From the NCBI GenBank assembly GCA_008632985.1, contig QPGO01000006.1:865138-897518 (forward strand): DNA of 32,381 nt, written 5' to 3'. Every line of letters begins with the position of its first letter. Position 1 is the stretch's first letter. Position numbers and translations under genes: made by a program. Below the pieces are notes generated by a model, which ran no database searches, had not been told where the DNA came from, and saw only the letters and a program-made list of their open reading frames with translations. Below, piece after piece: positions 3,511 through 32,381 of this stretch. The DNA comes from Psammoneis japonica (lineage: Eukaryota).

Positions 3511-3519
3511 CCATTGTGC

Positions 3520-6320: not shown

Positions 6321-6433
6321 CAGAAGTCCACCATGACACTGTGGATTCGTCGCATGCTTTCTTAACGCGAAAACGCTTTGGCTAAACTTCTCACTTTCAC
6401 TCTCTTCTTTTAGATTGAATCATGCCTTTAAGC

Positions 6434-9400: not shown

Positions 9401-12400
9401 AAATGTGACAATAGTCTTGGCATCTCTTTTCCTCATGGGAGATGTTCGAACGCTTCGCCAGGCGGGATGAAGTGCTGTGTGCGCGACTTGAATTGCGCTT
9501 CATCTGACGGCGAACATGATGGAATGTGCCTTGCGGATATTATTTGCGCACGACAAGGCCGCGTTCCTCTGATTGAAGGGTGTCCTGATGGTTCTGAAAG
9601 AGGGGTGTGCTGCATATCCCCGTCAGACGAAAAGTGCGTGGTACATTCGATGTATGTCGGAGATTGCATGTTAAAAGAAAGTTGTGTTGCTTCGGGGCGC
9701 ACTCCTCTTCTCGCCTACTCTGAAGAAAAGCATCGTTGTATCAATGATAGTCACGCATGTTGTGTCACTCCTCCGACTTGCCAAAGTATGGTATCAAATA
9801 AAGAAAGCACACTTGTGGAAGGAGAATGCAAGCACGTCTCGGGTTGTAACTTGAATGCTGTTGCTGAAGATTGCCCTGACGGTGATGGTGATATCAAGTG
9901 CTGCATGGATCTACCCCCATGCAATGTAGAAGGTGTAGCTGGCCAGTGTATGGACCGCGACCTTTGCGACACAGACAATGGGGGTAAAATCCATGACGAC
10001 GAATGCCCTGGCAGCTCACAAATCAAGTGCTGTACAACCTTGTCAACCTGCAAAGTAGGAAACAACGTGGGTAACTGTGTGTGGAAAAGCGATGGCTGCA
10101 ATGGTATTCTCGCGGATAGTAACGACTGTCCAGATTCGGATCAAATTGGTTGCTGCCTTCCGTCGCCACCCGCGTGTAAAGTGGGGGATGTTATTGGAAA
10201 GTGCGGCACTGTGTCGTCGTGCGGTGACCAACTCGTCGCAAATGAATCTTGCCCTGGGGATACTGGCGACTCCGGTTGCTGTGTGGATCTTCCACCGTGT
10301 GAAATAGACAGCATTGGTGGGCTTTGCATCAGCAAGCAATGGGGCGAATGCAATGGTTTGCTTTTGAAAAACCTCGGTGGTTGCCCTGGAGGTGATCTTG
10401 TTGGGTGTTGTATCCCCCCAACCTCGTGCACTTTCGACGGTGTCACGGGCTCGTGTGTCGTTGGCGACGAATGCTTGCAAGATGCGGAGCTTCCAATACA
10501 CGCAAATCTGTGCCCCAACGATATTGGCTGTTGCGTTTCCCTCCCGGAATGCACAGCTGATGATACCAAGGGCAAGTGTATGCCCCACGGGGACTGCACG
10601 GGAGTTTCATGGTTTTCCAGTGACTGTCCGTACGATTTTTCGGCCGTTGGCTGTTGCCTACCCACGCCCTGCTTTTTCGATGATGTTCGCGGGGCCTGTG
10701 TTCCCGACGAACAGTGTGCACAGGATGGTGCCTTTGTAATACACGTCGATTGCCCGAACGATATTGGTTGTTGCGTTTCTCTTCCAGATTGCAGTGTGGG
10801 AGACACCGAGGGCAAGTGTATGCCGCATGATGACTGCACAGGAGCATCGTTCCTCTCGAACGATTGTCCCTATGACGATCTTGTGGTTGGATGTTGTATT
10901 CACGAGACCCAAGAACTCAACTGGGACGGTTTCCCTTGCGGACCGGAAGATATCCCGCCTCTGAACCTCAACAAGAATCCAAACGATCTTGAATATCCAA
11001 GCTACCTTTCCATACCTGGTGAACCTGACCTTTGCTTCATTCGATTGACAGACGATATCGCTAAGCCGGCAGCTGCGTCAGCTTTCGCATCATTTGCTTT
11101 TGATGAGAGCAATGCGGGATACACATTTTCAATGACCGCAAAATATCGTATTTATGGCGCAGATGACGGGTCTGCGGACGGTCTAGCTTTTGTGATACAC
11201 CAGAGTCAAGATGGCGAATCTGCTCTTGGAGGCCAAGGTCGGAACATGGGTGTCTATGCCGCAACGAATGGCATAGCACCTGCACTTGTTGTCGAACTGG
11301 ATACTTGTAAGTGATCACGTCTGAAACGTTAAATAATCTGTGAAAGCGACCTCCCACTTTTTCCTGAAAATGCTCTTTCCTTTCACATACAGATGAGAAT
11401 CTCGATAGCCTGGACAAGGGAGAGGATAGCATCCATGTGGTGCGAGTGCATGAGGACTCAACGTTGGAGCAACTCGCCCAAAGTCAGGGCGGACTTCCCA
11501 TTCGTACCGATGACACTGGCGCGCAGCATGGCCGCATTTGGATTGACTATTGTGGCGGTGGCATCCTCAAGGTCTATTGGAACAATAGTGGGGACAGCAA
11601 ACCAACGGTGTCGACTGTTGTTGCCAACGTTGATTTGGCACAAATCTTTTCGTCGGCCCAAGTGTTTGTTGGCTTTACGTCAGCTACGTACATGGAAGCA
11701 GACTTCCACGATATTTTGTCCTTTTCCTTCAAGCAGACCTGTCCTCTAACTATGGAAACTTGCCAATTTCACATAGCCGAAACACTTCTCGACTGGGAAC
11801 AGCACCAAGCCGCCGCGCTAGCTCAGAATTGCAACCTGGCATCAATATTGAGTATGGAAGAGAACATTCGAGCTCTGGAACTGATACGGGCTAGTTCGTT
11901 GGAAGGTGTGGATTCTATTTGGTTGGGAGGAAAGTACCGCGCAGGTGCCACGCACGGCCAGCCCGGCCCCGAGAACTGGGAATGGGCTGATGGTTCCGTG
12001 TGGGAGTATGAGAACTTCCATGAACATCAACCGGATGGATTGTCTTGGCAATCGCTGGCATTGACGTACTGGAAGGGGGGGGCGTACAATTTCGCGTGGG
12101 ATGACGATGTCGCCACCAAGTCTCTTCCCGCATTGTACAAATGTTGCGGGATCTCAACATGCGCGCAACCAAATTCCTGCTTTGACAGCAAACACGATCT
12201 TTTTGACGCAGTCGACCAAGTCCTTGCAGATCCAGTGGAGGCGGAAAGCGCCCTTGCGGGAAGCTACGGCTGGCCAATGGGTTGCTGGTGTTTCACCTCG
12301 AACATCCAAGATTTTAGCGACCTGTTCTCCAAGGATCGGAATGCCAACGCCGCGACGTTCGATGAAGACATTTCGAGCTGGAATGTTTCCCAAATCACAG

Positions 12401-13347
12401 ACATGAGCTTTATGTTTTACTATGCAGGTTCCTTTGACCAAGACTTATCGGCGTGGGATGTACGAAGCTTGGAAAGAGCAAACAGCATGTTCTACATGGC
12501 AGAGTCTTTCCGCGGAGGCCTTTCTTCCTGGGACGTGTCTCGCGTTGTGGACATGTCCAGTATGTTTGCGCATGCCAGTGTCTTTAACGACGATCTTTCC
12601 AAATGGAATGTAACAAGTGTCAAATGGATGGGATATTTATTCAGTTATGCACGTGACTTCCAGAGTGATTTGTCTGAATGGGACGTATCGAATGTTGAAT
12701 TTGCAAACGGCTTGTTCGCTTACGCCTCGGCATTCACATCCGACTTGTCTGCCTGGAACGTGTCGAATATCCGCTGGGCCAATAGCATGTTCTCATTTGC
12801 TTCCAGCTTTAACAGCTCGCTTGCGGATTGGGATGTGAGCAATATGGAGCGTGTCGCCTCCATGTTTAACAGCGCTCGTTCCTTCAACAGCAACCTTTCG
12901 AAATGGCGGCTCCCCAAGGTGACTTCGTTTTCTGAAATGTTTTACAGGGCGAGTTCTTTCGATTCTGACTTATCCAGCTGGGACGTGTCCAAGGTAACTC
13001 GTATGGAAGGAATGTTCGAAAACGCGAATAGTTTCAAGGGTGATATTAGCGGCTGGGACGTGTCGAGTGTCAAATCCTTTGCCTACATGTTTGCTAACAA
13101 TGAATTCTTCAATCAAGACATTTCCAACTGGAATCTCACCAGCGCCCTCACCGTGAGTGACATGTTTTGGGGCGCTGTCCGATTCCGCCAGAACCTGTGT
13201 AAATGGGGTACCTATTTGTACACCAACCGTGCCGTTGTGGAAACGTACGGCGGTCGCTCTCTGTTTGCTGGGACCGCCTGTCCCAACGAATCCGCCCCCG
13301 ATATCTCTAGTTTGCCAGTAGGTCCGTTGTGTTACGCTTGCGGCTAG
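6434..13347 (+). CDS. Large secreted multidomain protein (~2180 aa): signal peptide, Lys-rich segment, FN3-like domain, beta-rich region, 15 six-cysteine repeats, legume (L-type) lectin, C-type lectin, DUF285/BspA-like repeats. Exons 6434-6505, 6791-11306, 11393-13347
   Basis: Exon 1 encodes MKSLVVAAVAVVTLMGGGVRGSNP followed by GTACGT. Branch GCTAAC and acceptor CAG at 6790 join in phase 0 to the 1521-aa ORF. GTAAGT 11307..CAG 11392 (phase 1) joins to the 636-aa ORF and restores the lectin motif VVELDTYEN. Other motifs: ADGLAFVI (L-lectin), WLGG..WEWADGSVWEYENF..QPD..WDD (C-type lectin), 25-aa WDVS repeats. Extra micro-exons in intron 1 cannot be excluded. Confidence 0.9.
8951..10897 (+). repeat. 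15 tandem cysteine-rich protein repeats (C-x~6-GxC-x~5-C-x~10-C(P)-x~6-CC)
   Basis: Fifteen units, each ending in CC, counted in the translation. Units 12-13 and 14-15 are a recent two-unit duplication (CPNDIGCCVSLP, GKCMPH.DCTG, DCPYD). Confidence 0.93.
12358..13209 (+). repeat. 11 full DUF285/BspA-like 25-aa repeats plus a partial one
   Basis: Exact 75-nt periodicity from FDEDISSWNVS (12358) to FRQNLCKWG (13183); consensus F..DLS.WDVS.V..M..MF..A.S. Confidence 0.95.
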
Positions 13348-13559
13348 TACTTCTAGTAAATACTAAACAACTCAAATAGTGTGATCGTACGAACTAGTGA
13401 AAGGATGGTTACTCTTGGTTGTAAACAGCTGTTGTGGGTGAAACAAAGTTTTGTTCTCTAGAGATTATGACTGAAAGAATGATCGAAATTTCAACGATTT
13501 CGCGGGATTCGAGATTTTAATTCGAGGTGATGACGTCATGATGTCTGGACAAATGACTT

Positions 13560-16500
13560 GTGATGTCACAATGACTCCCTCTCAACCAAGAGGCACCAGC
13601 CCATTAGACTCTTCCGACAAATTTCAAATTTCACCTGGACGAGAGCCTTGGTAAATTGGTCAGCGAGCTGGGATTCAGTTCCAGTCAGTTGAATGAGACT
13701 CTTCTACTTTCGTGCAAAACCAATGACAGGGCACAGCAACATGCTCAGTCCGCAGAGCACAATCTTGGGAAGCCGCGCATCGCGCTTGAGACAGGCACTT
13801 GACCACACGAAGGCAGCTGTTGTGGTGGTTCTGGTTCAGAAGATGGACATCAAATTGGATGATGCCCTTGTGATGAAACTGGACAACAGCCCCTGGCACA
13901 GGTCCGAGTGCACCATCATGCAATGACAGTGCTTCCCATCGGCATGAACAGACACCCTGACCCTTGTCAAGATTGGGTGGCACAAAGTGGGTGCAAGTTG
14001 TGTGTGTCCAACACTCATGGCTGGCCCACCCAAGCTTGCAAAGTGCAGCAACTCTCTTCCAATGTGATTGTTTGGGCTCCTCGTGCAGACCATGCCAACA
14101 TCCTTGAGGTCCTCTCCATTGTTTGGGAACAGACCACGGGACAGTCAGGGGCTGTCAAGTGCTGACAGGAGGGTTTGGCACTGCGTTGTTGGGAAGTTCC
14201 AGGCCATGTGCAACTCAATCATTTGTGGTGGCATCAGTTGCAGGAATGCTTTTTGACAACACTTCTGGTGACGCAGCAGCAGTGGGAGGTGAAGACAATG
14301 CTGCAACATTGGAGGGGAAACCCGCGCTTGACATGGTGGGACAATCGCCAAGGAGGAGGGGGGGAACTGGCACAAGCAGAGCCTGAAATTTGGTCAACAG
14401 AAACAATGCCACTGACATCAATGCCATCACAAATTCCTCAGGAACATGCACCATGATGATCGACCATGCCAAAAATGGGGTGTCCTTCAAAAGCTGCACC
14501 CCCACGCAGAGGCAAGGGCCATGGAATGAACCCTGGCAGCACACTCTCTGGCTCACAAGCCCAAAAAGCAGGAACCAGTGGCTGCACCTCCAAAGTGAGG
14601 AGGGAGCTGGGGATGCAAACTGACAAAATCAGTGTTGGGAGCGCCTGCTGACATCGCTGCAGTCAGAGTGGGGGGCGTGGGATGAACCCTGGCAGCAACA
14701 TCGGAAAAGCCGTCAAACAGAACAGGGCATCTGGCTGCACCCCTGACGATGACAGGGGGCATGGGATGAACCCTGGCAGCACAGTGGACATCTCTGGTGC
14801 CACCCAAGCAAGGCGGCATTGCATGAATCTGAGTGGATGGAGATGGTTCTTGAGCCGGTGACTTCACTTTCCCACCCTTGTCTGCACTGTGACAATGCTT
14901 CTTTGATGGACAAGATTGGCAGAAACCCCTCCTTGCCTTGAGCAGTCTGATTGGGAGGAATGGAAACCCATGGCACCAGCAAGGATGTGTTGTTCACATG
15001 GCAAAATGAAGCTGGACAGCAAAAAATTGTGAACGAAAAATTGTGAACAAAAATTTCATGGTGACAAACCAAGTGAGCACAAATGAAAATTTCAGAGCAA
15101 ACAAACTTGCATGTTGAACAAGACATTGGCACAACAAAAGGCTGAAGGCAACAGCTTTTGCATTCATTGGAAAATGTCACAGATCAAGAAACAAATGAAA
15201 TTGGAGGTCAGGGATTCAAAACGAGAATGGAGCCTTGCTTCTTTTCTTCTTTCATGCAGTCAAGAACTTCTTGTTCCAGGTGAGTTTTTACACCACATTC
15301 ATCTGTGTTGGGTTCAGTGCAAATGCAAGTCACTTCTTGTTCTCTGCGGGTTCTTGTTGGTTGTCAGGTGGAGCAGTTTTTGTTCACACAATTTGGCAAC
15401 TGGTCATTTTGCACCTCCAAAGTTGTCTGTTCTGCCATTTCTGTCTCTGTGTAAATTGCTGCACACCCACACTGGAGTCTTCAAGCTTTTCTTGAAGATG
15501 TCCAGTGCTGTCCACACATCATTGCAGTTCTTGATGCCTGGCACATCAAGATCAATGGCGGCTCTAAATTTCTTTAGAGGTGGCTGGCCAGTTTGGGTGC
15601 CAGCAGATCTGCTCATTGATTGCATTGATGCTGTTGCTGATGGTTGTTTGGCATTTGGAATGAAAGGATTCTTTCATCTGACATCGTATGACAACTGAAG
15701 GAACATGTGCTCCAGTGCCAAAAAACACTCTCAATTGACAACAAGATGTGACTCAAGGATCGCGCGCTCCAGTGCCGAGTCACACTCTGAATCAACAATG
15801 AGATGAACGTCAGTTCACAAAGTTGTGAGCAAGAAAGCTTTTGCTTGCCTGCACTGCCAGCTGGTCACTGACTGTGGTTGCTGTGTTTTCACAATTGGTG
15901 GCACACCATGCTCCTGCTTGCTGCCCTGAAAAAAGCTTGAGAAAAAATGGCAAACTGCCAAGATTAAATTCACAGTGCTGTCAAATTCAGCCAGCTGACA
16001 CAAACAATAAACTTGATGTGATGCAATGTAGAATGGACATCAATGCAGAAAATCCCAGACCAATGCAAGCAATGGTCTGATGTGCACCCAGCCTTTTGTG
16101 CACATGTGACAGGAAGTCGAAACCAGCAATGTTTGAAAAATTGTGCTTTTGAGAATTTTCACACTTGTGCCTTGTCATTGTTGCTTTCTTCTCATTTTTC
16201 CCAATTCTGAACCCTGTGCTCCAGTGCATTGAGCCAACTTGCAGCAAAAGTGCAGGTGAGGTTGTTCATTTGCCACCATGTGCTTGAAAGCAGAGCATCT
16301 CCCATCTTTTTCTTTGGACTTCTCTTTCACTCACAACTCTGCCCCCTTTTTTCAAATGCTGCGGAGGATGCCCAGGCTGTCATGATCAAGCTCACACTTC
16401 CTTCACCCCATCCTCAATGCCAGCAGTCACAATGCTGTTCTGTTCCTCCCCCCAAATTCCTCGGACATGGAAAAGTGGCACGTTTTTGTTGCAGTTTGTG

Positions 16501-18239: not shown

Positions 18240-21200
18240 AGAACCGACTTCAACTACGAGATACATCATCGCACATTGAACTTCCACAAGATGTCGTTCC
18301 CGCTGACGTTCATAACCTCACCGGTGTGATGCCGCTGCTGTTAGCAGCACATCCCAATGTAGAACGCACGAGCGAACGATGACGTGTCAAGTGAATCGAG
18401 ACGAGCGATCTACAACGTGTCGGGTCCGTCAATCATGCACGGAAGTTTGCTTCAACCCTCATTTTTCATGAGATCTGAACTTTTGCAAAGGAAGACTCTC
18501 CAGCCATCTCAGTCACAAAGCATCGCCAGTTGCAGCTGAGACAACATCTGCGGGGACCAGAATGCACTGGTCGCAGAGTCTGCAGAGACCGGGAAACACC
18601 GGTTGCAGATTTGTCATTTCGCATTCATTGTCATTCATTGCACTCTTGACGTGCTGAAGATTTGTTGCACACACTCATCTGCTGAGTCCAGAAAACACTG
18701 GAAGTGGACCCTGCAGTGACTGGGGACACCAGTTGCAGGTCGGATTGTCTGCCATCTGTTGATCACATTGACTTTACTCAGATTGTTCTCATTGCAAGTC
18801 TCATGGGTCATCGTGTTATCTGGTGTGCACCTGTTGCTGCGTTGTTGGCTCAACTTGTCTTTGCGCAGTGTGAGCCTGCGGTTGCAAGCTGTCTCATGGA
18901 TGATGGCAACACCAGGCACCAAGACAACACAAACAGACGTTTTGAGAAGCTTTGTTGCAGGAATGGAAACGAGTGCATCCCTTGGGTTTGTTTGGTGTGT
19001 GACAGATTGTCAAAACCGTCTCAGACTGCTCGACTTTCTGTCAATGGATTGAATGAAGCCAGACACCTGTCAACTCCATCTGAATGGAACCAAGCATCGG
19101 AAGACCTGCACGATTGTTGTCGCATCGATGACGACCACATTCCACGGGATTGCTGATGGATTTCCGACCTGTTGCTTTCGCCAAGAGCTCGACATGTTGT
19201 TCCGAACGACAACAGAAGGTCTGAAGGATTCACTTGTTGCAGGCCTTGTAAAAGAAGTCTCTGCACTGCTTCTGTGCCTCTGTGCGCAACAGCAAACAAC
19301 AATCGCTGTTTTGGAACACCACCACCTGAATTGTCGTGTCTTGCCGAAGTGGAGCTGGCTTTGTTGACACCTGTGAAAACACATGGCTGCTGCTTCAGTT
19401 TTGTCGGTGGCAAACAGAAGAAACTGCAAGGCAGTCTTTCCTGTTGCAAGATAAACACAAAGAGCATCGCCCGCACCATCATGCACTTTGACGTGTTGAA
19501 CCTTCATCAAAATGTGGTTGTGTTGGTGTCCGGCAAAATGACACCAGAGCAAAGGCGAATGGCCAGACAAAAGAACAAAATCAGGACTCACTGTGCAATG
19601 AGAGCACTAGAATGGCTTGTCCATCACCACGAGAATTGGATGAATCAAGACATCGATCTAGAGGAAGTGCGAAGTAATTTACAGAATCCAGTTTTAGTGG
19701 ACAATGGCAGTTTGGACGAAAGCGAAAATGCAAACATTGAAACCACGGAGTCCCACAGTGTTTGTTTCCCCGATGGCACCGTTTCTTCAACAACTGGTGG
19801 ACAACGTAATTTAGACAGCTTCAAAGACTTGGTGCACGATGCAGCTGCAAGCGGTTTTGACATTGAATTCAAAGCTGATCTTTTGAAAGAATCAGTCAGT
19901 GACTTTGAGGACAACAACCTGGCAAATGCTTGCTTGCTGCAATTTCCTTGTGGGCATGGCGGCATCAATGAAACAAGAATGAAAGAAGACGGGAGTCTCG
20001 CCGACTGCACAAATCCAGCACATTGCGCAGATCACTTGGCCCGCATTTCTCAGCCCCATTTCCACAAGCAACTCTTTGTTCTGACCCTGTGCAATCTGAC
20101 TGTGAAGCAACGAATGGTGCATGGTGCTGGATGGAAAGTAAGAGACAAAAATCAAGCCAGACAATTCTCAAATGAACTGACACAAGACGACGTCGACCGT
20201 GCCACATGTGACAGACAGACTGGTGAACGCAGGAATTGTGCATTGGGACATCGTTTCTTAAGTGCAGTGGATGTGGTGTCGGCATCTGTTCCACGTGCAA
20301 ATGAAGCAGCAAAAAAAATGAGAAGAAATGCTGAAACCTGCCAACACCACTTTGGACAACCTGGAGTGTTTTTAACGACAAGCCCCGATGATGCCAATTC
20401 CTTTTTAGCTCAAATTCACACGGACATGCTCATCAACGAAGGCAGAGATGTGACAGAAATGTCGGATGAAGAATTGGCCGAAAAGGCTAAGGCAAGAAAC
20501 GAGCTTCGTGTGGAGCACCCGGGTGTCACGGCTTTTGCATTCGAAATGTTGTTGGAAATTGTCATAGAAGAAGCAATGGGATGGGACTTAAAAAGGAATT
20601 CACCCAGAGAAGATTTTGAATTCTACATGGGGAGACCCTCCGCTTTCACAGCTGCAATGGAAGAACAAGGTAGACTCTCGGCACACGGTCACATTCAGGC
20701 ATGGTTTGAAGACACAAACACAGCAAGAGACAATCTGCATTCTGACAACAGAGATTTTAGGCGTGATGGCAAAAGAACACTGTCCAAACTGACCAGTCGG
20801 ATCTGCACAACTGGGTTGACATGTGGCGAGGATTACACTCGACTGTCCATCACAGANNNNNNNNNNNNNNNNNNNNNNNNNNNNNNNNNNNNNNNNNNNN
20901 NNNNNNNNNNNNNNNNNNNNNNNNNNNNNNNNNNNNNNNNNNNNNNNNNNNNNNNNNNNNNNNNNNNNNNNNNNNNNNNNNNNNNNNNNNNNNNNNNNNN
21001 NNNNNNNNNNNNNNNNNNNNNNNNNNNNNNNNNNNNNNNNNNNNNNNNNNNNNTCCCTGGTCTGACTGCTTGTCCAGACAACACAACAAAGAGACTTAAA
21101 GCTGTGTGCATTCAGCGTCAACAATCCGATGAGAATGGGACAATCGAACCACACATTCCAGATGCTGCATGCAGCCATCACATGCATGCTAACATCGCTT

Positions 21201-22092
21201 GTTTTTCTAAGCTGAAACAATTTCCAAAAAATGGAAAAAAATTCCGAGAATGAAATGACCACTGGCAGAAGCGCGCGTGAGCGTAAATTGCACGAGATGC
21301 AAAATGCCGATTGCCATTTCAATCTCCCCGCCGCACACAGTAAATGCAATGTAATCAGGAAAGCTCACAACGCAAAAATTAAGTGGTTCTCTTGGGATGG
21401 CTCATTCCGTCATAGATGCGTCAAAGAAATTGTCCCCAAGAGGAGAAAATACGATGCTTTCCAGAATGTGTCGTGCCCTGCAATCAGCAGATCTGAGCTG
21501 ACATGCAACACAAACATCGCAGTTCTAATGCCAGGCATCCCAGGTGGATCATGTAGAACTCAAGCATGGCAACAAAAGCATCGATCCACCCACCTTTTCG
21601 CTCAAGCCTAAGTCTTCCACTTTCAAAGCCTGTTTAAAGGACCCAACCCAACAGATGACAGCTGAGGAAAAAGAGAAACATGTGCTCGGACTGAAAGCAA
21701 CCCAATTGCCATTCACAATGAACAACGCAACTGCAGGACACAAGCTTCAAGGAAGCGGTGTCGACAATGTGTTTGTACACAGCTGGAGCTGTGCACAAAA
21801 CTGGGCATGTGTCATGCTCTCCAGGGTTGAGACCAGAAATGGTCTGCATCTTCGGCAACCGCTGAAGAGAGATTTAAGTCTATACAGACTGCCGGACGGG
21901 CACAACGCCCTGCTCCGGTTGATGGAAGGAAGAAGTGTCACATGCTTCACCAACGAACAGCATGATGACATTTTGCAGTCCAATTGACAAATGGAACATT
22001 TTGATGCTGCATGTGGGAATTATTTCTGCCTTTTGGAAAATGTTCCAGGCTTTATACGCGGGCTTGCAAGCGTGCCCGGCAACAACCGATAG
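18240..22092 (+). mobile_element. Helitron (Rep-helicase), internally deleted and mutated
   Basis: One frame from ~18241 to the gap, broken only by TGA stops. Motifs FGTPPPELSCLAEVELALL, LQFPCGHGG, HFGQPGVFLTTSPDD, HUH motif EEQGRLSAHGHIQAW, later CNTN. PIF1 motifs V/VI (QLP...NATAGHKLQG...CVMLSRV) at ~21700-21830. GC-rich hairpin at 22059-22078. The 5' boundary is uncertain. Confidence 0.9.
20857..21053. other. Assembly gap (197 N)
   Basis: Run of n characters. Confidence 1.
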
Positions 22093-22510
22093 AAAACAAA
22101 GGGTCTAATCTAATAAATCGATGTTAGTACATTATTACAATGATAGACACACTCAGCAACCAGTGATACACAACGTTAGGACAGTTCTCTTATCATCTAC
22201 CATAGAACGATCACACCAGAATTATCAAAAAGGGGAAACCCACGTCTCTTCTTATAATATATCCATACACGAATACAAGAATTAAATCGCCATTTTTTGA
22301 TATAATATTAAAACATTAATATAGAATTACGTCGCACATTAATTAATTGCGAACCCATCATTTAAGCGTGCGAATTTTTTAAAAAATGATTGGTGGCAAG
22401 TAAAGATCAAAGCTCTAAAATTTGATGCTCGCGCGCATGGCAATCCAAACCAGCCCGGGTTCCACACCTCCTCACTTCGTGTCCAGAGTTCCTACCATAA
22501 AGGAGGAACC

Positions 22511-22548
22511 AATTTTCGAAAATTTTCGAAATTTCCAAAATTTTCGAG
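22511..22548. promoter_or_regulatory. Repeated AATTTTCGAA motif, heat-shock-element-like array upstream of the MYND gene
   Basis: GAA-aa-TTT-tc-GAA-at-TTC-ca-AAA-tt-TTC: 4 of 6 alternating pentamers match nGAAn/nTTCn, ~80-115 bp before the ATG at 22628. Confidence 0.3.
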
Positions 22549-22627
22549 TACAGTATGTTCTCGCATTATCCTCCTCCGTGGTGTGTCTTGGCTCTTCGCA
22601 GTCATCATCATTCGAAACCTGACAAAC

Positions 22628-23989
22628 ATGGCGTCACCAGAGCCGACGTCGCATCCCTCCAAACCGTTGGTGAAATGGTCTGGTTTGGAAACAAACGGAA
22701 TGAAGGACGTGAAATGTTCGCTACTTCAGCCTCCCGACGTCAAGCTGAAGCCGAGAATCAAGTCACTTCCAAAAACAAGCCTCGTTGTTTATAATGACGC
22801 AGCATGGGACTCGTCGTCCGATAGCAATAACGACATGCGATTCAAGTTTGACGGAACGACCGTTATGCAGCTCGAACCATCCTCGAACGAAAAGGGCAGT
22901 GCTCAAACCATGCCCGTGACAATGACTGTTGCCGGACGGTGTTACTTCACGGCCCAAGATTACAAGAATTTTCTATTAATGATGCGAACCAAGCAGCAAT
23001 CGGAGCAATTGGAAATAATCCCAAATGGAAAGTTTGATTGGCCTGATGTGAGAAGTTTCCTTTTGTGTCCCTTCTGTCATAAAAGTGCGCGCATTCCAAG
23101 ACGACACGACGAGTCAAACAAAGAGTTTTGGATGCTCTTTTATCCCTTGGTGCAATTTACAGTACTACCCGGTTATAAAATGGCTCTTGGTACCCGCACT
23201 ATTTGCCGTCTAACTTGCCTGGAGTGCATGGAACACGTGCTCAAGGGGAAAACCATAAAGGTAAAACGGACCGAGGGCGACGTTGTGAAATCAACCGTCT
23301 TGTCCGCCACGGACGTACTCCGGGTCGTTGGCTCTGTTTCGTTCCTGCAGGACAAGCCACCGCGACCCGAATCACATGCCAATATCCATGATGTTATGGA
23401 CGCACACACATTGTATACCCTGTGGGAGCAGTGTGGTGCCTGGGAGGCACTTCAGCACGATTACCATGACATGTTGGCTCGTTCCGTGACTGGCACAGAG
23501 CCACCGCCGCAGGACGTGGATGCACCATTTCGTTTTGGACGCAAATGTGACAATCCCGAGTGTAAAAGAGTTCACGGCAAGTTTGACAAGAGCTTGGGAA
23601 TAATTGTGTCACTGACGGTACCATGTCACGAGTGCAACTCTGTGCATTACTGCTCTCGCAAATGTCGAACCATCGCGTTCAACAATCACAGAGAAAAGTG
23701 CTTGGACTATCAAGAGAAGATCAAATTGGACGAGAACAAGAAAGAAGCGCGCGTTATTAAGAAAAAGAAAGAAGCACGCATTGACGAAAAGAAGCAGAAC
23801 GAGGACGAGACGAAGAAGCAAGAAGAGGAAATCAGAAAGGTGCGGTGTAGTTATTGCAAGAAACGGAGACCCTACACCAAGATGAAAGCCTGCTCTCGGT
23901 GCAAGACGGTTGCGTACTGCTCCACTGACTGCCAGAAGGAGGCTTGGAACTTTCACAAGGTCTTGTGTGTCAGACGAAAAAGTCAGTGA
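22628..23989 (+). CDS. Protein with two MYND-type zinc fingers (453 aa)
   Basis: CDNPEC...CHECNSVHYCSRKCRTIAFNNHREKC and CSYC...CSRCKTVAYCSTDCQKEAWNFHKVLC, separated by a K/E-rich coiled-coil-like linker. Additional CPFC/CLEC pair upstream. Single uninterrupted ORF from the first ATG. Confidence 0.9.
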   Translation: MASPEPTSHPSKPLVKWSGLETNGMKDVKCSLLQPPDVKLKPRIKSLPKTSLVVYNDAAWDSSSDSNNDMRFKFDGTTVMQLEPSSNEKGSAQTMPVTMTVAGRCYFTAQDYKNFLLMMRTKQQSEQLEIIPNGKFDWPDVRSFLLCPFCHKSARIPRRHDESNKEFWMLFYPLVQFTVLPGYKMALGTRTICRLTCLECMEHVLKGKTIKVKRTEGDVVKSTVLSATDVLRVVGSVSFLQDKPPRPESHANIHDVMDAHTLYTLWEQCGAWEALQHDYHDMLARSVTGTEPPPQDVDAPFRFGRKCDNPECKRVHGKFDKSLGIIVSLTVPCHECNSVHYCSRKCRTIAFNNHREKCLDYQEKIKLDENKKEARVIKKKKEARIDEKKQNEDETKKQEEEIRKVRCSYCKKRRPYTKMKACSRCKTVAYCSTDCQKEAWNFHKVLCVRRKSQ

Positions 23990-24077
23990 CAACATGCGCA
24001 AATTTATAATACATAATGATTATGACAACAATAATTCAAACAAACAATGGCTTTGATAAGAATAGACTGATATATAT

Positions 24078-25088
24078 TTAGGCGGACATGAGCACAGGGT
24101 TGCTCTTTCGATCCTCCAGAATGGCCTCTGCAACGTCCATATCTTCTGGCGTAGTGATTTTCAAATTGGTATATTCTCCAAGTGTCAGCTTGACTGGTTC
24201 ACCCAGAGCTTCAACAATTGAAACGTCATCTGTCACTTCCAGATCCTCCGCTTCCACCTTGGCAAATCCTCTCAGCAGCGTTTCAATTTTAATCACTTGC
24301 GGCGTATGCACTTCCCACAACCTTGATCGTTGAATCGTTCGAAGCACCAAGGTTCCGTCCTCACTTTCTTTAATTGTCGCCTTGCACGGTACACCCAAGA
24401 CTGCCGCGCCGTATTCCTTGGCATCCTGGACGACATGGTTGACTTCCTCAATCGTCACGAGCGGACGAGCACTGTCGTGGACCGCCACGTATTGGCACGC
24501 ATCACCGGCAATCTCGGCCAACTTGTTGAGTCCGTTTTCCACCGATCCCTGTCGTTCCTCACCGGGATTGGCAAACACGAGACGTCCCTCGTAATTGTCC
24601 ACAATGGGTTGGTATTCGGGTTGATACTTTGGGTCCAGCACCAAGACAACGAGCGGTGGGCCGCTTTTATAATAATTGTAGGGAAATAGAGAAGTGTCAA
24701 TTTTGTGACTTGCGTAATTTCTCAACATTATCATTCTCAATTCAAACCATTCTCACCTCAATCCTTGTTCTTGCGCATGTCGAGGTAACTGTTCTAGAAA
24801 AAGATCCAACGAATGGTGCAGCACGGGTACTCCACGAAGCGTCAAGAATTGCTTTGGCATGTTGGCCTTCATTCTTGATCCCGTCCCTCCAGCAAGCAAA
24901 ACAAACCCGACATCCCCCAAATTGACAGCTTCCTCCGAAGATTCTTCCGATGCTGCGAGTCTAGTGTTGTGCACCAACGCAGTCGGTAGCTTGTGTGGAC
25001 AAAACGCAAAGAAGCATGGCAGCGACGCGACGAGTAACATCAGCCCGAGAAACCTTCCCGAACGACGTGATTGTGATTCCGACCTCAT
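24078..25088 (-). CDS. ispD: 2-C-methyl-D-erythritol 4-phosphate cytidylyltransferase, plastid-targeted (~305 aa); exons 25088-24757 and 24663-24078
   Basis: LLAGGTGSRMKANMPKQFL, ERQGSV, VAVHDSARPLV, LWEVHTPQV, VTDDVSIVE and NLKITTPEDM motifs. Signal peptide ending FFA-F. A 93-nt phase-2 intron GTGAGA...AAG joins the two ORFs. Confidence 0.96.
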
Positions 25089-25487
25089 TTCTATCCTTAG
25101 ATTCTCTGGGCCTTTTGTGCTCTTCTGTAACAATATAAAGACTCTATACTTGTGCTTCACCGGGTATCTTCAATCTCACAGTACAGAAGCTTGTCGTTGT
25201 CGAACATCGCATCAACATCATGATGTTGTCGAAAAGAGGCGCTTTTCCGCGTGGAACACGCACGTTGGTGGCGAATAAGTCACGACTAAATTTCTCGCCC
25301 ACCAGATGCCAGATTCCAATTCTCACAATGACATCGCTGTTTGAACACCTAGTACAAAATCACGTAGAATTCTACGGGCATTCGAAAGATCCGTTCACCT
25401 CGTGTTGCGCGGCCATCATTGTCGCATTGTGCCCCCGTTGTCACATCATCATATCGTTGTCAACTTCTGCTGAGATATTGATTGAAC
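25089..25487. promoter_or_regulatory. Probable bidirectional promoter region between ispD and the adjacent plastid-protein gene
   Basis: 399 bp between two divergent ATGs; no specific element identified. Confidence 0.5.
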
Positions 25488-26113
25488 ATGATGTATGCTT
25501 CTTGTCTAATGTATGCGTCGCTTGCAATGCTAAGTGCTCCAGTATCTGGCTTTGTTGCACCGAAATTGGGTGATCCAGCGCAGACTGTAAGTGTTAGCAA
25601 CTTTGATGTACAGTATATTCGATTCCCAGAATTGAGAATGTTTCTTACACAAATTCTGATATATGCCTTTTTTCAGAGACACTCTCCTCGTTTTAGCACT
25701 GTCGAAGAAATCGACATGGGCTCCAAATTTTTCCAACTTCAGGAAATGGAAGACAAGGAGTGCGCCACGACGGAACTCTTTTTACACGAGGACGGTCAGG
25801 TGGATTTGTTTGATACCGACGGCCCGGTTCCCACCGCCACGGCTGGATCGTGGCAACACAACACGGGAAACGGTGAATTCATTATGCGAGTCAAACGAGA
25901 ATTTGAAGCCGGTAAGAACGAACGGGATGCCACCGATATGGGCCAATTCAAGTTTATTGTGGACCGGACCTTTACCGGATCCTTTCCAAAGTAGGCGGTG
26001 CGATTGCCGTGGAAGGTGTGATGCATGATATTGATGAGCTTTTGGGAGATCGTGAAGTTGGGTACTTTGAAATGCTGGATACGACAGAAACCCGATTGGG
26101 ATATGAAATGTAA
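25488..26113 (+). CDS. Plastid-targeted protein of unknown function; intron 25587-25676; apparent 1-nt frameshift at ~25983-25987
   Basis: MMYASCLMYASLAMLSAPVSG-FVAP (ASAFAP-like), phase-0 GTAAGT...TTTCAG intron, then FFQLQEMEDKECATTELFL...TDGP...GSW. The frame stops at 25994, but the -1 frame continues KVGGAIAVEGVMHDIDELLGDREVGYFEMLDTT to TAA 26113. Confidence 0.75.
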
Positions 26114-26372
26114 AAGTATTGAAGCTAGAGATATGATTGAAAGAATCCTTAGCCGGAGACGTAAGTGTTCAGCAAAGGGTTACAGGACAGATTCTGTGGA
26201 AGCAAATCATGAACAAAGTACGGTAGAATAACTCCCACGTTTAGAATCTATTTTAGATTAGATCTTAAGTAAGGAATCGGACGAACTTTTGGTATTGAAA
26301 GATTGTGCAAGTTCTATCATCCAAGCTCCCATCATGCTACTAGGGCCCTACCTACGACTCTCTGTCAAACCT

Positions 26373-26943
26373 GCAACGCTCCATCACGATACATGGATGA
26401 CTGCCGCTGCCCACAAACGGAACTCCAAAGCAGGATGAGGACGATTGGTTTGCTCGATAAACCATTCAGATTTCAGAATTTGAGGTTGCTCCAAGAACAG
26501 GTTTCAATGGGTACAACAGTTTCGGCCATTGGATTATCGTTGGTGGTGCTGCGCTACCGAATGTCAGGTAAGCAGTAGTTAATTTTTCTCTTGGCTAATA
26601 TACCGTATGTAACCAATCCAATCACCTTTGTGTTAGGGAAAAGAGGAAGGCTCTAGTGTAGACAAACGCAATAATATGGTCAGAAGCAACGCTCCATTAC
26701 GGTGCATGAACGACTGCCGCTACCCACAAACAAAACACCAAAGTAGGACAATCGGTTAGCTCACTCATCCATTCAAATATTATTTCAGGATTTAAGATTG
26801 CTCAAAGAACAAGTTTTCAACGGATTATCGTTGGCGGTGTCGCCTTACCGAACGTACGTCAGGTAAGCAGTAGTTAATTTTACTCTTGTGTTAGGGAAAA
26901 GAGGAAGGCTCTAGTGTAGACAAACGCAATAATATGGTCAGGA
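26373..26943 (+). repeat. Tandem duplication (copies 26373-26685 and 26686-26943)
   Basis: Both copies begin GCAACGCTCCAT and share GACTGCCGCT.CCCACAAAC, GTCAGGTAAGCAGTAGTTAATTT and an identical 56-nt block (26628-26683 = 26886-26941). Confidence 0.93.
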
Positions 26944-26944
26944 G

Positions 26945-27295
26945 TGTTCTTTTTTTAGGAGCATTTGTTTACAAGTGTCATGGATAGGCTGGTGTGAATT
27001 GAGCAGGGCAAAAACATCGGTTACACAGTATCTAGGGCCTACAGTCGTGAACTCCAAGCTCGGTTCTACACTGTCAACACAGTACGAACTCATGCGCGAT
27101 ACGCGCGCGCTACACTTACGCATGCGATTTCCCGCCATCGGTCTTTTTCAACTTTTCTCACAATTACAACATCTAGTGTAACAAGACATTAGCAGCTTTA
27201 CCGACACACCATTATCGTTGGCCCTCTTCGCTAGCGATGCATCTATCACTCGACCTCAGTCGACTTCCCCTGACTCTCAGACGAGAGTTGTCGCA
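26945..27295 (+). repeat. Probable 5' LTR (3' end fixed by the PBS, 5' end uncertain)
   Basis: Ends in CA immediately before the PBS. Several TG candidates for the start (26945, 26976, 26993). The second LTR is outside the window. Confidence 0.55.
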
Positions 27296-27307
27296 GGTTA
27301 TGAGCCC
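27296..27307 (+). promoter_or_regulatory. Primer-binding site complementary to the anticodon arm of initiator tRNA-Met
   Basis: GGTTATGAGCCC is the reverse complement of GGGCTCATAACC; the same internal (half-tRNA) priming site type as Drosophila copia and yeast Ty5. Confidence 0.88.
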
Positions 27308-27409
27308 AAGCATCACGCTTGATCACTCCTGCGCTCATCTCTTTCTCTCCGGTGGACGAGAATTGAGCTCCGTACACTTTTTACGTACAATTCTACGTGA
27401 GTGTTGCAC

Positions 27410-27769
27410 ATGTCCGGAAGGAACTCTGCGACACTTGACGACCTCATTGAACAACTGCAAGCCCTGCAACTTCAAGACGCAGAGCTTGTTCGTCACGTTG
27501 CCGAAGAAAGAGAACGGCAGAATCGCCTCACTGCGCCAACGCGAGCCGGAACCGCTCGCACTTCAACCATGCGAGAACCAACCATCGCGGATTTTCGTGT
27601 GGGTGACCGAGTCATTGTGACTGACGAAATCTGCAACTTTCGACGCTCCACTGCCATCCAAGACCGTCAAGCAACTGTCTTTCGAATTGCAGAACAACGC
27701 GCACATGTCCGCATGGACAACGGCAATTCAACTGACCGTCATCCAAAGAATCTGCGTTTTCTCGAGTGG
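27410..27769 (+). pseudogene. Small accessory ORF upstream of gag (119 aa; coiled coil + SH3/KOW-like motif), original stop probably mutated TAG->TGG
   Basis: LDDLIEQLQALQLQ...FRVGDRVIVT...DRQATVFRI...VRMDNGNSTDRHPKNLRFLE, then TGG at 27767-27769 just before the gag ATG. Confidence 0.65.
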
Positions 27770-27774
27770 TTCGC

Positions 27775-29256
27775 ATGCCAAGCAAAGCAGCGAGCATTCC
27801 GCTCCCTCCTTCTCCGCCAGCCAGCATGTCTGAGGCAACCATTGACGGACGGAAAGTGAAAGTCCGCGCGAAGCCGAAAGCATTGCAAGAAACTCTTGCT
27901 GCCCTCTGCACTGAGGCGCAGAGGAACAGGTTGGATCCTGACAAGCTCAACGACCTCTTTCTGAAGGCGACTTCGAAACAGCAGACAAAATTTGACCTCC
28001 TCAACGTCAACATCAACGATCCTGACAAGCTCGAGGATGCTTGTGACCTCGCGATGTCCATCTCAACCATGCGTTCGAACCATGTTAAGTGTGACATGGA
28101 TGACGTCTTCACCATCATCAACCCGGACAAATTCACGACGCGCGATCTTTACAAGGAATGCTCCACGATCACCGCAGCGGAGGTCGCCGCAAGCAACAAA
28201 TGGCGCGCAACCATGCTCGAGGACCCCGGTGGGACTTGGGCGAGCCAAAACCTTCGTCTCACTCACGACCACTTTGAGCGGAACGCGTCCGTCGCACTGC
28301 AGAAGAAAGTCAACGAGACACACCTCAAACATGACCAGGAAGAGCAGGGCGGACCTCTTTTCTTCGTTCTCATGATGAAACTCCTTCAGAGCAACTCTGA
28401 AGAGGCTGCTCGTCATTTGGTTTCCAACATGACCAACCTCAAGATCACCGACTTCGATGGAGAAGACGTGAGCAAAGTCGTGTCTCTTGTTCGCGGTGGC
28501 TGTTCTCGACTCGCTAATCTCCAGGATCAGAAAGGACAGTCTGTTGTTCCCACTGATTTTCTGGAGAATCTCACCAAAGTCTTCCAAACGTCGAGTGTCC
28601 CCGAGTTCAACTCTCTCTTCGAGCACCTTGCCAAGGACTCCACCTCCAAACTCAAGCAATCAGGCTCGACGACCGCTGCAACGACTGCTGTGGTGGATGA
28701 CATCTTATCTTTCGCCAAAGGCGAGCATCTCGCTCTTGTCTCCTCCGACAAGTGGTCCGGCGTGACTGCCAAGAAACAAGCAACTTCGTTCGTTGCGGGA
28801 GTCGTCACTTGTTTTAACTGTGGCGGCCCTCATCCTTTGTGCGACTGCAAGAAACCGGTCAACGACGCTCGTGTTGGTGCTGACAAGAAGCTCTTCTTCG
28901 ACGCGAAACGAGCCCAGCGCAAGAACAGCTCTTCGGGATCCTCCTCTTCCGGTCCCTCCACTGAGGCCATTCCCAAGAAATGGCAGCCACCGACTGAAGC
29001 CGAAAAGAACAACAACAGTCGCCGCAACATCGATGGCAAGGATCACTGCTGCCATTGCAAAACCAAGCGCTGGCGCCCGGTGACTGAGACGGGGAACGTT
29101 GCTTCCGCTCCTGCCGCTGCACCTTCTCCCACTCCGGCCGCTGCGCCCGCTCCGGCACCGGCTTCCGCTCCTGTCACGGATCGAGACCTCGCCATTGCCA
29201 ACGCCAAGAAGGAGATGGTCGAAACTGTGTCCGGCCTCTTCGCCTCCTTCACCTGA
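27775..29256 (+). pseudogene. gag: Copia gag ORF, open but hypermutated
   Basis: EEQGGPLFF, LKITDFDGEDVSKVVSLVRG, VFQTSSVPEFN, zinc knuckle CFNCGGPHPLCDC. Only 1 Tyr in ~493 aa. Confidence 0.9.
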
Positions 29257-29396
29257 AGCTTCGGGCGCGCCTCCTCTCCTGAGCGTGTGGCCCTCTCTTC
29301 TCACTTGTTCAACCATCCGTCCGATCCTGGAAGGGACATCCAGGCTCATTTTGTCGGTCGGTCACTTTTTGCTCCTATGGTTCACTCTCCAGATTC

Positions 29397-32381
29397 TTGG
29401 AGAGGGAGGGATCGAAGCAGTTTTGTCGATTTTTCAGTTGCTGTTTGTTTTGGCAGGTGGATGTTTGTTCCACTTGCTTCTCTTTTCCAAGAATCCTTCG
29501 CTTTTCATACGACGATCTTCCCGACTTTGTTGTTGTTCCTGCTTTCGAACCGACCTCATTTCGTCGTCCTCCTGATCGAACTCGGATGACTCATCATTCT
29601 CAAGTGCGCCGCTTGGATCGGCGGCCAGTTCGAATCCCACATAGAGACCCCTTGTGGTCCTTCCTTCATCCAACGACTTGGCGCAAACAGCGCCGAACAC
29701 CTGTTCCGGACAGTGCAGCGATTGCCGATCCGGATCTCTCCTGTCGAAAATCCAAGTCGTGGAAACTCTCAAGATCGAGACGTCGATTCAAACCCAGGAA
29801 AACGAGACCACCTAGATTTGCCTACGTTGATCCTCAACAAGAAGCCGCAGAAGCCTGCACTCAAATCAAGCATCGCCTGCTGCATCTGCCTTCTGAGATG
29901 TGCAAATTTCCTCATGGTGCGACTCCAACTGATTTCATTGTTTTACTTGATCCTCTCGGCGACTGCCTCAGGACCAAGCCTCCTCACAACTCCACAATGC
30001 GAACGGAGCCCTCACCTTTTGCACCACCAGATGACCCTGAAGCTTCCGAACTAGAAGAGTTCCACCGCATCAAGCACCGACTGTTGCACCAAACCTGGAT
30101 TGTGTGCGACATGCAGTGCGGTTGTTCGTTAGACGAATTTGTTCAAGGCATTGATCCTTTGGAACAATTCCATTTGATCAAGACACTTGCCTCTTCCGAA
30201 ATGTTACGAGCTTGTGGTCAAGCGCCGACGCTCTCTTGCGTCGCAACCAACTTGTCACGCACGACAACAGCAACCTTTACGAGTGGTTTTGGTGGAGCAG
30301 CCATGTTCTCTCACCAGACCATGACAGGTCCATCTCACGTTGTTGCATCCGAGCCGGATCCACCATGGCTAACCGACGATCCAACGCAGTGTGTCAAGTC
30401 CTTCCGTGATGCAAGAGATCTCGAAGGCCGCCAATGTCAAGCATTGACATCGTGCTCACCTGTCGATGCACCTGTTGTTCTCGACACAGGTGCATCTTCA
30501 TCGCTCACACCTCACTCAAGTGACTTTGCAGGACCGCTGGAACCCGTTGATGCCACTACAATCAACGGATTGTCCTCCAGCACCCAAGCAGTTGGTCAAG
30601 GTTTCGTAGAATGGGGCGCAATCGATTGTTGGAATGCAATCCGGACTGTCCGAATGCGAGCCCACTGTGTTCCTGATGCCTCCATTCGCCTCTTCAGCCC
30701 TCAAGCCTGTTTTCAAGAGAATGGAAACCAAGGTGAATGTCTCGTTCGAGGAAACAAAGCAACCCTCACTCTTCCAAAAGGGGATGTGCTCGAGTTCCTG
30801 TACAACAAAGAAAACAACTTACCTTTTGTGATGATGTCCGAACCAATCTCAGCCGGAGTCACCCAATGCAACTTGGCTCCCGTCAGTGCTGAAGCACGCC
30901 TCACTTCGTTTCTTTCTGTTGCTTCTCAGACCAATCAGAATCTAACACCCGGCCAGAAGGAGCTTCTTTTGCTCCATCAGAAACTTGGTCATGCCGGCTT
31001 CCAGCACATTCAACGCTTGTGTGCAATGCCACGGGACCCTGCCAAATCCCACATTGTCAAGCCTTCAACCCACGCCGTCTCCAGTTGTGCTGCACCTTCA
31101 TGTGCTGCCTGTCAACTCGCAAAGCAGAAACGATGAACACCTGACCGTCGCGGCACCTCCAATCATCCGCCGTTGACTTTGCGACAGGGAGATTTGGCGC
31201 CTGGTCAATGCGTCTCCGTTGATCAGTGTGTCAGCCGTGTCCCTGGCCGTCTTCCGACGTCCAAGGGACGCGAACCCAAGAAAGACAAGCACTGTGGAGG
31301 CACGATTTTTGTTGATCATGCTTCTACCTGCGTCTGTCTGACCCATCAAGTTGGTCTCACCGCAGGTGAAACTGTTCGTGCCAAGTGATCCTTTGAGCAG
31401 CTTAGTGACCAATTTGGGGTCCGCATCCAGTCCTGCCTTGCTGACAACATCCAGTTTGGCACCAAGGCTTTCATGGACAACCTAGAAGAAAACAACCAGA
31501 CTGTTGATTTTTCTGGTGTTGGCGCTCATCATCAGAACGGCGCAGCCGAGCGCTCCATCCAAACAATCACTTCATGGGCACAAGCTGTGCTCCTGCACGC
31601 CATTCTCATGTGGCCTGATGCCGCCAACCTGGAGTTGTGGCCTTTTGCCATGACCCATGCGACCTGCTTGTGGAACCACATCCCAAAGTCTGACACTCGT
31701 GCCGCGCCAGTTGAGATCTTCTCCAAGCAACGCTTTGACACCTGTGCGCATCTACAGCGCTTACAAGCATGGGGTTGCCCTGCATGTGTTCTTGATCCCA
31801 AGTTACAAAACGGGAAGAAACCACCTGAGTGGGACCCCAGGAGTCGCCGCGGCCAACATCTCGGCATCTCCCTGGATCATTCAACTAACATTGGCCTCAT
31901 TTTGAATCTCTCGACGGGCCATGTTAGCCCTCAGCATCACGTGGTCTATGACAACCACTTTGCAACAGCACCCAATGGTGACTCTGGCGGTTTCTTCCAG
32001 GACATTCCCTTCACCGCCGACCTTTGGGAATCCCTCCTCACCGCCGACTCGCTGGCACACAATGCTCCGCCTGAGCCTTCCGACACCGCCGATGACCCTC
32101 GTCGTCGCTTGCCGGCTTTGCACGATGATTGGTTGACACCCGCAGAGCGCCGCCATCACGCTAATCATCGACACGACCGCCGTCAACGTCGTCTTCAAAA
32201 CTCCAAAACAGCCCCTCCCGCTGTCCCTCCTTCAACCTCTTCCATCACAGCTCCAGAGGGAGAGCTTCCTGCATCACCTGCATCATCCGCTGACGATCTA
32301 GAATCTGTGACTTCAGAGGCTCCAGAGGGAGTCGAGATTGATGAGTGCAGCGATGACAGCGACAACGAATTGTCACTTGTC
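29397..32381 (+). pseudogene. pol: Copia pol (protease, GAG-pre-integrase, integrase), two in-frame TGA stops, truncated by the window end
   Basis: VVLDTGASSSLTP (~30475), LLLLHQKLGH...CAACQLAK, VSVDQ...GGTIFVDHAS, ADN, SGVGAHHQNGAAER, LWPFA, WGCPACVLDPKLQNGKK..WDPRSRRG, TGHVSPQHHVVYD. Single frame with TGA at 31134 and 31386 (likely CGA->TGA). Confidence 0.93.

Follow-up and report, generated by a model that had tools for sequence, protein, structure and literature searches.

Why has the dinucleotide TpA almost vanished from some tracts of a diatom contig and not from the genes beside them? The question is raised by a 32,381-nucleotide (nt) stretch of the Psammoneis japonica genome (assembly GCA_008632985.1, contig QPGO01000006.1, positions 865,138 to 897,518, forward strand), hereafter the window, in which host DNA alternates with blocks that include a Copia-type retroelement and a Helitron remnant. 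We consider it likely that the diatom nucleus runs a TpA-specific mutator, turning A:T into G:C, on resident mobile-element DNA, as the initial annotation of this sequence had proposed. All coordinates are those of the whole 32.4-kb window and features are collected in Table 1.

TpA depletion is confined to four sharply bounded blocks

Dinucleotide profiles, by which the blocks were delimited, separated the window's host DNA from four blocks with almost no TpA (~1-4800, 13650-16400, 18400-21800 and 27395-32381). Block edges were sharp to ~200 nt in the TpA profile, the final TA cluster ahead of the Copia block lying at 27373-27394. In 500-nt intervals, the observed/expected ratio (o/e) of TpA was 0.00-0.30 in the transposable element (TE) blocks (median 0.09, n = 131) and 0.30-0.90 in host stretches (median 0.54, n = 141), the two classes touching only at 0.30. 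The Copia block held 32 TA dinucleotides, compared with a mean of 268 and a lowest count of 225 in 1000 mononucleotide shuffles. Non-coding parts carried the signature too, for example 18400-19171 and 27395-27765. No paralogous TE pieces came to light when the window was compared with itself by BLAST.

The loss was restricted to TpA, with TA o/e at 0.05-0.14 and AT, AA, TT, AC, AG and GA at 0.8-1.3; dinucleotides other than TA, CG, TG and CA were ordinary in the TA-poor blocks (AT 0.82-0.93, AA 1.14-1.27). Biased gene conversion was rejected as a cause, since it would lift GC at every A/T site, yet AT, AA and TT were normal. Measured against the host baseline, the joint deficit of TA and CG closely matched the excess of TG and CA in three blocks (349/322, 217/202 and 126/131). 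The initial annotation had assigned the signature to four TE blocks and to no host gene. The split at o/e 0.30 agrees with this, and Pfam supports the Copia and Helitron labels; the labels ‘Gypsy’ and ‘DNA-type debris’ found no Pfam support, leaving two blocks unproven as TEs.

Cysteine and histidine stand where relatives keep tyrosine

The direction of change was read from Tyr columns, defined as alignment columns with Tyr in at least 40% of homologues, in alignments of pol (top 59 of the 120 listed matches), gag (all 15 matches) and the Helitron (top 60 of the 150 listed, first 900 amino acids (aa)). At the 13 Tyr columns of pol, the window had Cys at seven, His at four and Tyr at two (11/13 Cys or His). 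The 14 columns of gag gave six Cys, four His and one each of Tyr, Phe, Arg and Ala, and the 13 of the Helitron gave seven Cys, three His, two Phe, one Asn and no Tyr. Across all three proteins, 31/40 columns were Cys or His, with Tyr kept at 3/40 and Phe found at 3/40. Each Cys was encoded by TGY and each His by CAY, as a single TA>TG or TA>CA step in a Tyr codon would give. Because these codons stand where relatives keep Tyr, the direction of change was TA to TG or CA. The changes were almost wholly A>G plus T>C, judging by these columns and by the match between deficit and excess in three of the four blocks.

Tyrosine was also singled out among conserved residues. At pol columns conserved in at least 70% of relatives, 7/9 Tyr had changed compared with 35/235 other residues, and several of those 35 were themselves of the TA type, e.g. 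V>A, I>V and M>V. The pol fragment contained 0.3% Tyr, versus 1.2-4.6% in all 120 relatives listed. The motifs in which the initial annotation had seen Tyr replaced were confirmed by the alignments: AHC..SPQAC, DQC, PACVLD and ETHLKHD fall on columns where relatives have 74-100% Tyr, and in GKDHCCHC the two Cys that were checked fall on columns with 60-80% Tyr in homologues. Its counts were exact, both for TA (5 in the gag open reading frame (ORF) and 30 in host positions 7921-8520) and for Tyr (1 in gag, 3 in the 579-aa pol ORF, 2 in the Helitron and 12 in the host MYND protein).

Both strands are hit and the 3′ neighbour matters

Survival of TA relative to host was similar for each trinucleotide and its complement (TAT 0.03 and ATA 0.06; TAC 0.14 and GTA 0.11; TAG 0.22 and CTA 0.26; TAA 0.32 and TTA 0.28). 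Both strands were therefore equally hit, and the 3′ neighbour of the target A mattered, with susceptibility in the order T>C>G>A. Among the 107 TA surviving in the TE blocks, the next base was T in 6%, compared with 30% in host DNA (P = 5e−9), and ATAT, the commonest form in the host (59/631), was absent from the TE blocks.

The outcomes at Tyr codons independently confirmed this context rule. His should be favoured after a purine because it requires a bottom-strand event, and a purine preceded 8/11 His outcomes versus 5/20 Cys outcomes (Fisher test, P = 0.02). The overall Cys:His ratio (20:11) was in the predicted direction and not significant (P = 0.15). Since the Helitron, which has no RNA stage, shows the signature, reverse transcription is not needed, and the pattern in the sequence suggests a process acting at the DNA level, independent of reverse transcription.

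A young Copia element separates TpA loss from CpG decay

About 80% of the expected TA was gone from the Copia block while CG o/e was still 0.92, whereas the older blocks had lost both. TpA loss therefore formed a fast, early layer and CpG decay a slow, later one. The same ratio (0.92 versus 0.24-0.63 elsewhere) makes this element younger than the other blocks, as had been claimed, yet not pristine. Toward the window's 3′ end (31000-31800), CpG o/e drops to 0.5-0.8 and TG/CA climbs to 1.5-1.7, so the element has not decayed evenly at CpG.

No frameshift was found over 1.5 kb of gag and 3.1 kb of pol, although ~80-95% of TA had been lost, which indicates that few other events happened. The absence of frameshifts had been noted before, but the pol frame is interrupted by in-frame TGA stops at 31134-31136 and 31386-31388. 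The first of these is a CpG>TpG change private to the window, because all 4/4 other family contigs covering that site in the reads described below have CGA. The initial annotation had also taken the intact frames as a sign of speed. By the codon table, TA>TG/CA never makes a stop codon, so frames should stay open anyway and their openness alone is no proof of speed; the lack of frameshifts is the part of that argument that stands.

The best relatives of the Copia pol were Copia pol proteins of pennate diatoms (52-58% identity). Protein searches with pol and gag found no same-species copy, their top matches being 58% and 48% identical, respectively, and a comparison of pol with viral contigs gave a single, irrelevant match (L018).

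Relatives of the Copia element in sequencing reads

A public run (X1), whose platform is not recorded and which is possibly the assembly's own source and so not independent, contained 67% of the sampled 31-mers of 22400-32381. The single-copy host part, in the 21900-27150 control stretch, was recovered as one 4173-nt unitig at a k-mer depth of 58.5 with four differences. Depth over the Copia part was ~500 in total, equating to ~8-9 copy equivalents at a likeness of at least 80%. Across 21100-32381 there were 892 X1 contigs, falling into identity classes of 205, 224, 287 and 176, of which the 205 were at least 99% alike. A second run (X2) gave no contigs on 27509-32381.

The Copia family was compared over 40 of 1415 difference rows, a set biased to sites at which the window stands alone against every other contig. 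Of its 27 Copia rows, nine had CpG in the others and TG or CA in the window, three would make TA in the others and two had TA in the window only. Adjacent TG/CA double differences were seen at 28881-2, 21152-5 and 21278-9. Such doubles are the expected mark of alternative outcomes, and an ancestral CG could also yield them.

Immediately upstream of the Copia block, the stretch 27157-27394 reached ~19 copy equivalents in X1, with loose ends, and contains 13 TA in 238 nt. Possible readings are a short, or a different, repeat spared by the process, and the untranscribed part of a long terminal repeat (LTR).

Tyrosine-free Helitrons occur in metagenomes

An exhaustive search was performed with the Helitron ORF, and the figures given here are from the 150 representatives listed (JGI and ENA metagenome assemblies). 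Median Tyr content was 3.3%; 15/150 fell below 1.7% and 2/150, of 866 and 1355 aa, had none. One 90% cluster contained six Tyr-free members of up to 1875 aa. In cluster pairs that were 97-98% identical, Cys/His was the commonest class of mismatch (8/24, 8/30 and 12/28), followed by M/T, L/P, A/V and D/N. At four of the columns where P0283 and P0411 differ by Cys/His, normal relatives have 55-97% Tyr. Because these swaps sit at conserved-Tyr columns, the sisters mutated independently from a Tyr-bearing ancestor, after insertion. An inherited trait, which the initial annotation had set against its own reading, would leave the same Cys and His in all copies; sisters in this public Helitron family differ by Cys/His, which favours mutation.

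Two columns of the Helitron Rep that are 97% Tyr and lie four residues apart read C/C, H/C, C/H and H/C in four Tyr-poor sequences. These columns probably hold the two catalytic residues of the Rep nuclease; because that pair is replaced, the open Helitron frames are predicted to encode dead enzymes. In the window's own copy the Rep catalytic region is unreadable, as an assembly gap (20857-21053, 197 N) lies inside the ORF.

A metagenome scan returned 17 Helitron loci. One of them, L007, is a 7761-nt Helitron with a TA o/e of 0.02, a CG o/e of 0.27 and an open 1878-aa RepHel ORF containing two Tyr, and 0/13 of its surviving TA have T next. A boundary is visible in L017, a locus from the metagenome that also yielded L007. 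At the conserved-Tyr columns of L007 2059-7695, Cys outnumbered His by 11 to 1, compared with 20:11 in the window and 8:7 in P0283; this stronger coding-strand bias could come from context or from a strand effect.

Proposed mechanism and alternative explanations

In the mechanism we propose, the A:T pair of a TpA would become G:C on either strand (TA>TG or TA>CA), at a rate so far above background that nearly all TpA would be gone before indels or other changes gather. Frames would stay open, since no stop is made, and each Tyr codon (TAY) would turn into Cys or His, disabling the element's proteins, including the likely catalytic Tyr of the Helitron Rep. The neighbouring base would be read, A being hit most before T, less so before C and least before A. 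Slower CpG decay, as expected from cytosine methylation, would come later and feed the same TG/CA pool. Probably, and this is our leading guess, an ADAT2/TadA-like enzyme deaminates adenine to hypoxanthine. The natural substrate of ADAT2/TadA is U33-A34, i.e. an A after U, and the T-A context fits this. By analogy, the process appears to be of the same kind as the TpA hypermutation of Bigelowiella natans (see below), and it may serve as genome defence. The core of the initial annotation, namely that a mutator turns TpA into TpG or CpA at the DNA level and in mobile elements alone, is upheld by the 31/40 columns, by strand symmetry and by the untouched host DNA.

Several observations weigh against this reading. 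No de novo mutation was seen and the whole case rests on end states. TE identity is confirmed for two of the four TA-poor blocks only. In the Copia block the mass balance closes by half only (a deficit of 149 versus an excess of 74), only 5/27 of its family rows touch TA, and a TA-poor ancestor that then spread would fit this family. The adjoining 27157-27394 is highly repeated in X1 and its TA is normal. The argument for speed from intact ORFs is weaker than claimed. Of the metagenome Helitron loci, 15/17 have an ordinary TA o/e (0.35-0.74), so the process is far from universal, and in three near-identical locus pairs, which act as negative controls, TA changes were few (1/18, 1/13 and 5/48 differences). 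Finally, ‘repeat-directed’ is a hypothetical part of the proposal, and in B. natans, according to the preprint cited below, the target is a single-copy insert.

The alternative that survives best, although we judge it unlikely, retains a DNA-level process and changes its chemistry. A base modification at TpA in silenced DNA, either of thymine (such as 5-hydroxymethyluracil, 5hmU) or N6-methyladenine (6mA), would mispair or be mis-repaired to give T:A>C:G. TA is self-complementary like CG and both are lost to TG/CA in the same blocks, as with maintained symmetric marks, and strand symmetry would suit a mark on the duplex. However, TpA and CpG loss are separable, as the Copia block shows (TA 0.12, CG 0.92), and 5hmU and 6mA pair mostly faithfully.

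Inherited composition or selection, whereby TE lineages avoid TpA/UpA (for example to evade an RNase that cuts UpA or a host factor that reads TA) and no mutator exists, is improbable. In its favour, the Copia copies of X1 seem to have most of the window's sequence in common, the frames of gag (496 aa) and L007 (1878 aa) are open, and selection against UpA in cytoplasmic RNA has been described (PMC3829696). Yet the trait is common to four unrelated blocks with sharp borders and affects non-coding parts and both strands equally. Tyr has given way to its one-step transition products in 31/40 columns and to the conservative Phe in 3/40 only, and even the 97%-Tyr columns of the Helitron Rep are lost. 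Selection on a shared lineage would, moreover, not make near-identical sisters differ by Cys/His.

We regard as very improbable a route through RNA, in which UA in TE transcripts or double-stranded RNA would be edited by an ADAR- or ADAT-like enzyme and the edited RNA turned back into DNA by reverse transcription, despite the 5′ U favoured by ADAR (bioRxiv 10.64898/2026.01.13.699255) and the RNA stage of Copia. The Helitron, without an RNA intermediate, and its metagenome relatives bear the same signature, and both strands are affected equally. Furthermore, we know of ADARs from animals only. Least credible of all is a sequencing or polishing artefact in which modified bases of silenced repeats were called as G or C: X1 may be the assembly's source sample and its platform is unrecorded, but its exact 31-mer unitigs, which reach 4173 nt with 4 differences at depth 58, point to accurate reads, the Tyr-free state recurs in unrelated JGI and ENA metagenome assemblies, and the changes are codon-coherent and context-dependent.

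Host stretches and the two old blocks

The host stretches that served as controls, their genes and the remaining features are listed in Table 1. The closest named relatives of the MYND protein and the Copia pol were raphid pennate diatoms (Nitzschia, Entomoneis, Mayamaea, Seminavis, Cylindrotheca and Fragilariopsis; 37-58% identity), which places the sequence with a diatom that has no near relative in the database, and not with Bigelowiella. The 1521-aa ORF is intron-free and contains 109 Cys; its C-terminus gave an L-type lectin match below threshold (27 bits versus a cut-off of 78). The DUF285 protein gave no usable match in the Atlas search. Host DNA includes two direct duplications with normal TA content, 5293-5871 versus 5702-6319 (78% identity) and 26373-26686 versus 26686-26944 (67% identity). 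Run X2, catalogued as DNA, looks like RNA: a contig of depth 226 skips 25587-25676, which has GT..AG ends, and this joint (25586-25677) indicates an expressed, spliced host gene within 25247-26377. The ORF at 25482-25994 matched no Pfam family.

Pfam searches of six-frame read-throughs of 1-4800 and 13500-16500 found no family, and sub-segments gave only rve (E = 0.05). From this weak match, block 1-4800 is probably an LTR-retroelement remnant, an assignment that is unconfirmed. A reverse transcriptase (RT)-like stretch near 1100-1450 is a reading by eye only.

Table 1 Features of the window, with dinucleotide o/e values where calculated
Feature	Position	Strand	Characteristics
Old TA- and CG-poor block	1-4800		TA o/e 0.08, CG o/e 0.31, TG/CA 1.7; weak rve match (E = 0.05) at 2701-3700
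Host control	5000-13400	+	TA o/e 0.56, CG o/e 0.96
Cys-rich ORF, host	6749-11314	+	1521 aa; 39 Tyr
DUF285 gene, host	11437-13347	+	Pfam; 21 Tyr / 636 aa
Old TA- and CG-poor block	13650-16400		TA o/e 0.05, CG o/e 0.24; no Pfam match in six frames
Helitron remnant	18400-21800	+	TA o/e 0.14-0.27 (0.27 after N gap), CG o/e 0.63; Pfam DUF6570, Helitron_like_N
Helitron Rep-side ORF	19172-20856	+	2 Tyr / 561 aa; interrupted by N run
Host control	21900-27150		TA o/e 0.61, CG o/e 1.04
MYND gene, host	22583-23989	+	12 Tyr / 468 aa
IspD gene (MEP-pathway cytidylyltransferase), host	24078-24740	-	Pfam E = 3.5e−41; TA content normal
Copia-type LTR retroelement, 5′ part	27395-32381	+	TA o/e 0.12, CG o/e 0.92; Pfam gag_pre-integrase, SH3_retrovirus; continues past window end
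ORF upstream of gag, in TA-poor block	27401-27859	+	152 aa; no family found
gag ORF	27766-29256	+	Intact, 496 aa; 5 TA, 1 Tyr
pol frame (protease + integrase part)	29283-32381	+	Single frame, two in-frame TGA

Comparison with known systems

To our knowledge, repeat-induced point mutation (RIP), which occurs only in fungi, has so far been the one well-understood process by which cells destroy their own repeats through mutation. As in RIP (Neurospora and others), transitions at one dinucleotide riddle mobile elements within sharp limits and leave them dead in place. RIP differs in converting CpA to TpA, which makes TpA and stop codons, and in requiring duplicated sequence and a sexual phase; in the window TpA is lost rather than gained, and frames remain open. 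The decay of CpG in methylated transposons is recognisable in the older blocks (CG o/e 0.24-0.31 with a gain of TG/CA) and in the private CpG>TpG/CpA changes of the window's Copia. It cannot remove TpA, however, and represents a second, slower layer here (CG o/e 0.24-0.63 in the older blocks). The initial annotation was right to set both systems aside, given that TpA is removed and the Copia CG o/e is 0.92.

Deamination is also directed against mobile elements by APOBEC, which edits retroelement cDNA in animals (PMC4866542), and by ADAR, which acts on double-stranded RNA; ADAR and ADAT share the preference for U before the target A. APOBEC, in contrast, gives C>T/G>A, and the APOBEC and ADAR routes run via cDNA or RNA, whereas here a Helitron, lacking the RNA intermediate that editing plus reverse transcription would need, is hit, and on both strands equally.

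The closest counterpart was reported by Mettrop et al. (bioRxiv 10.64898/2026.01.13.699255), whose mutation-accumulation lines of B. natans showed TpA hypermutation of integrated viral DNA. As given in that preprint, of the 231 mutations found across two integrated viral regions, 230 were of the A>G or T>C type; all fell at TpA, the rate was ~1000x background, and only some lines were affected. A TpA-poor subgroup of 324 predicted coding sequences was enriched in RT and DDE domains, and an ADAT2-like adenine deaminase was proposed. From the figures given there (211 mutations, 6169 TpA, 3132 generations) we estimate a rate of ~1e−5 per TpA per generation; by analogy, such a rate would remove 85% of TpA within ~2e5 generations, with fewer than one background change per 5 kb. 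The likeness extends to the restriction to TpA>TpG/CpA, to foreign DNA being hit while host DNA is normal, and to a long-term trace of TpA depletion with a gain of CpA and TpG. The differences are that the host there is a rhizarian and here a stramenopile diatom; that the preprint reports live mutation rates, compared with end states alone here; and that its targets are giant-virus and virophage inserts which still hold 3.3% and 9.2% TpA, whereas Copia, the Helitron and the two old blocks are depleted almost to saturation. A term search of the preprint found no mention of diatoms, and its main text notes no 3′-neighbour rule, order relative to CpG decay or Tyr-free proteins. Our literature search, with most subscription journals outside its scope, found no diatom or stramenopile report of TpA hypermutation. 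The earlier statement that no such system had been described thus holds for diatoms, but not beyond them.

The window therefore extends the signature known from B. natans to a lineage of another supergroup, to classical TEs and to saturation, and adds the 3′-neighbour rule, the order relative to CpG decay, Tyr loss as a consequence and the independent mutation of environmental Helitron sisters. The saturated end state in diatom TEs and environmental Helitrons suggests a spread among major marine phototrophs, and the process may be a widespread way to disable invading DNA. A low TpA o/e (<0.3) or the presence of long Tyr-free ORFs would serve as a simple marker for genome surveys, for dating insertions (TpA loss, then CpG loss) and for finding candidate deaminases by presence and absence. 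The T-A-Y context rule is a biochemical prediction open to testing, and a natural DNA adenine editor acting symmetrically on both strands would interest base-editing work. Annotation of TEs by standard profiles will fail in such genomes, as it did for two blocks here. Tentatively, diatoms (stramenopiles) and chlorarachniophytes (rhizarians) might share an old T-A-Y DNA-editing defence that would act ahead of and independently of cytosine methylation, killing mobile and viral DNA by erasing its Tyr codons while frames stay open, and whose traces, long Tyr-free ORFs, might be common enough in the environment to map its distribution and to find the enzyme by phylogenetic profiling.

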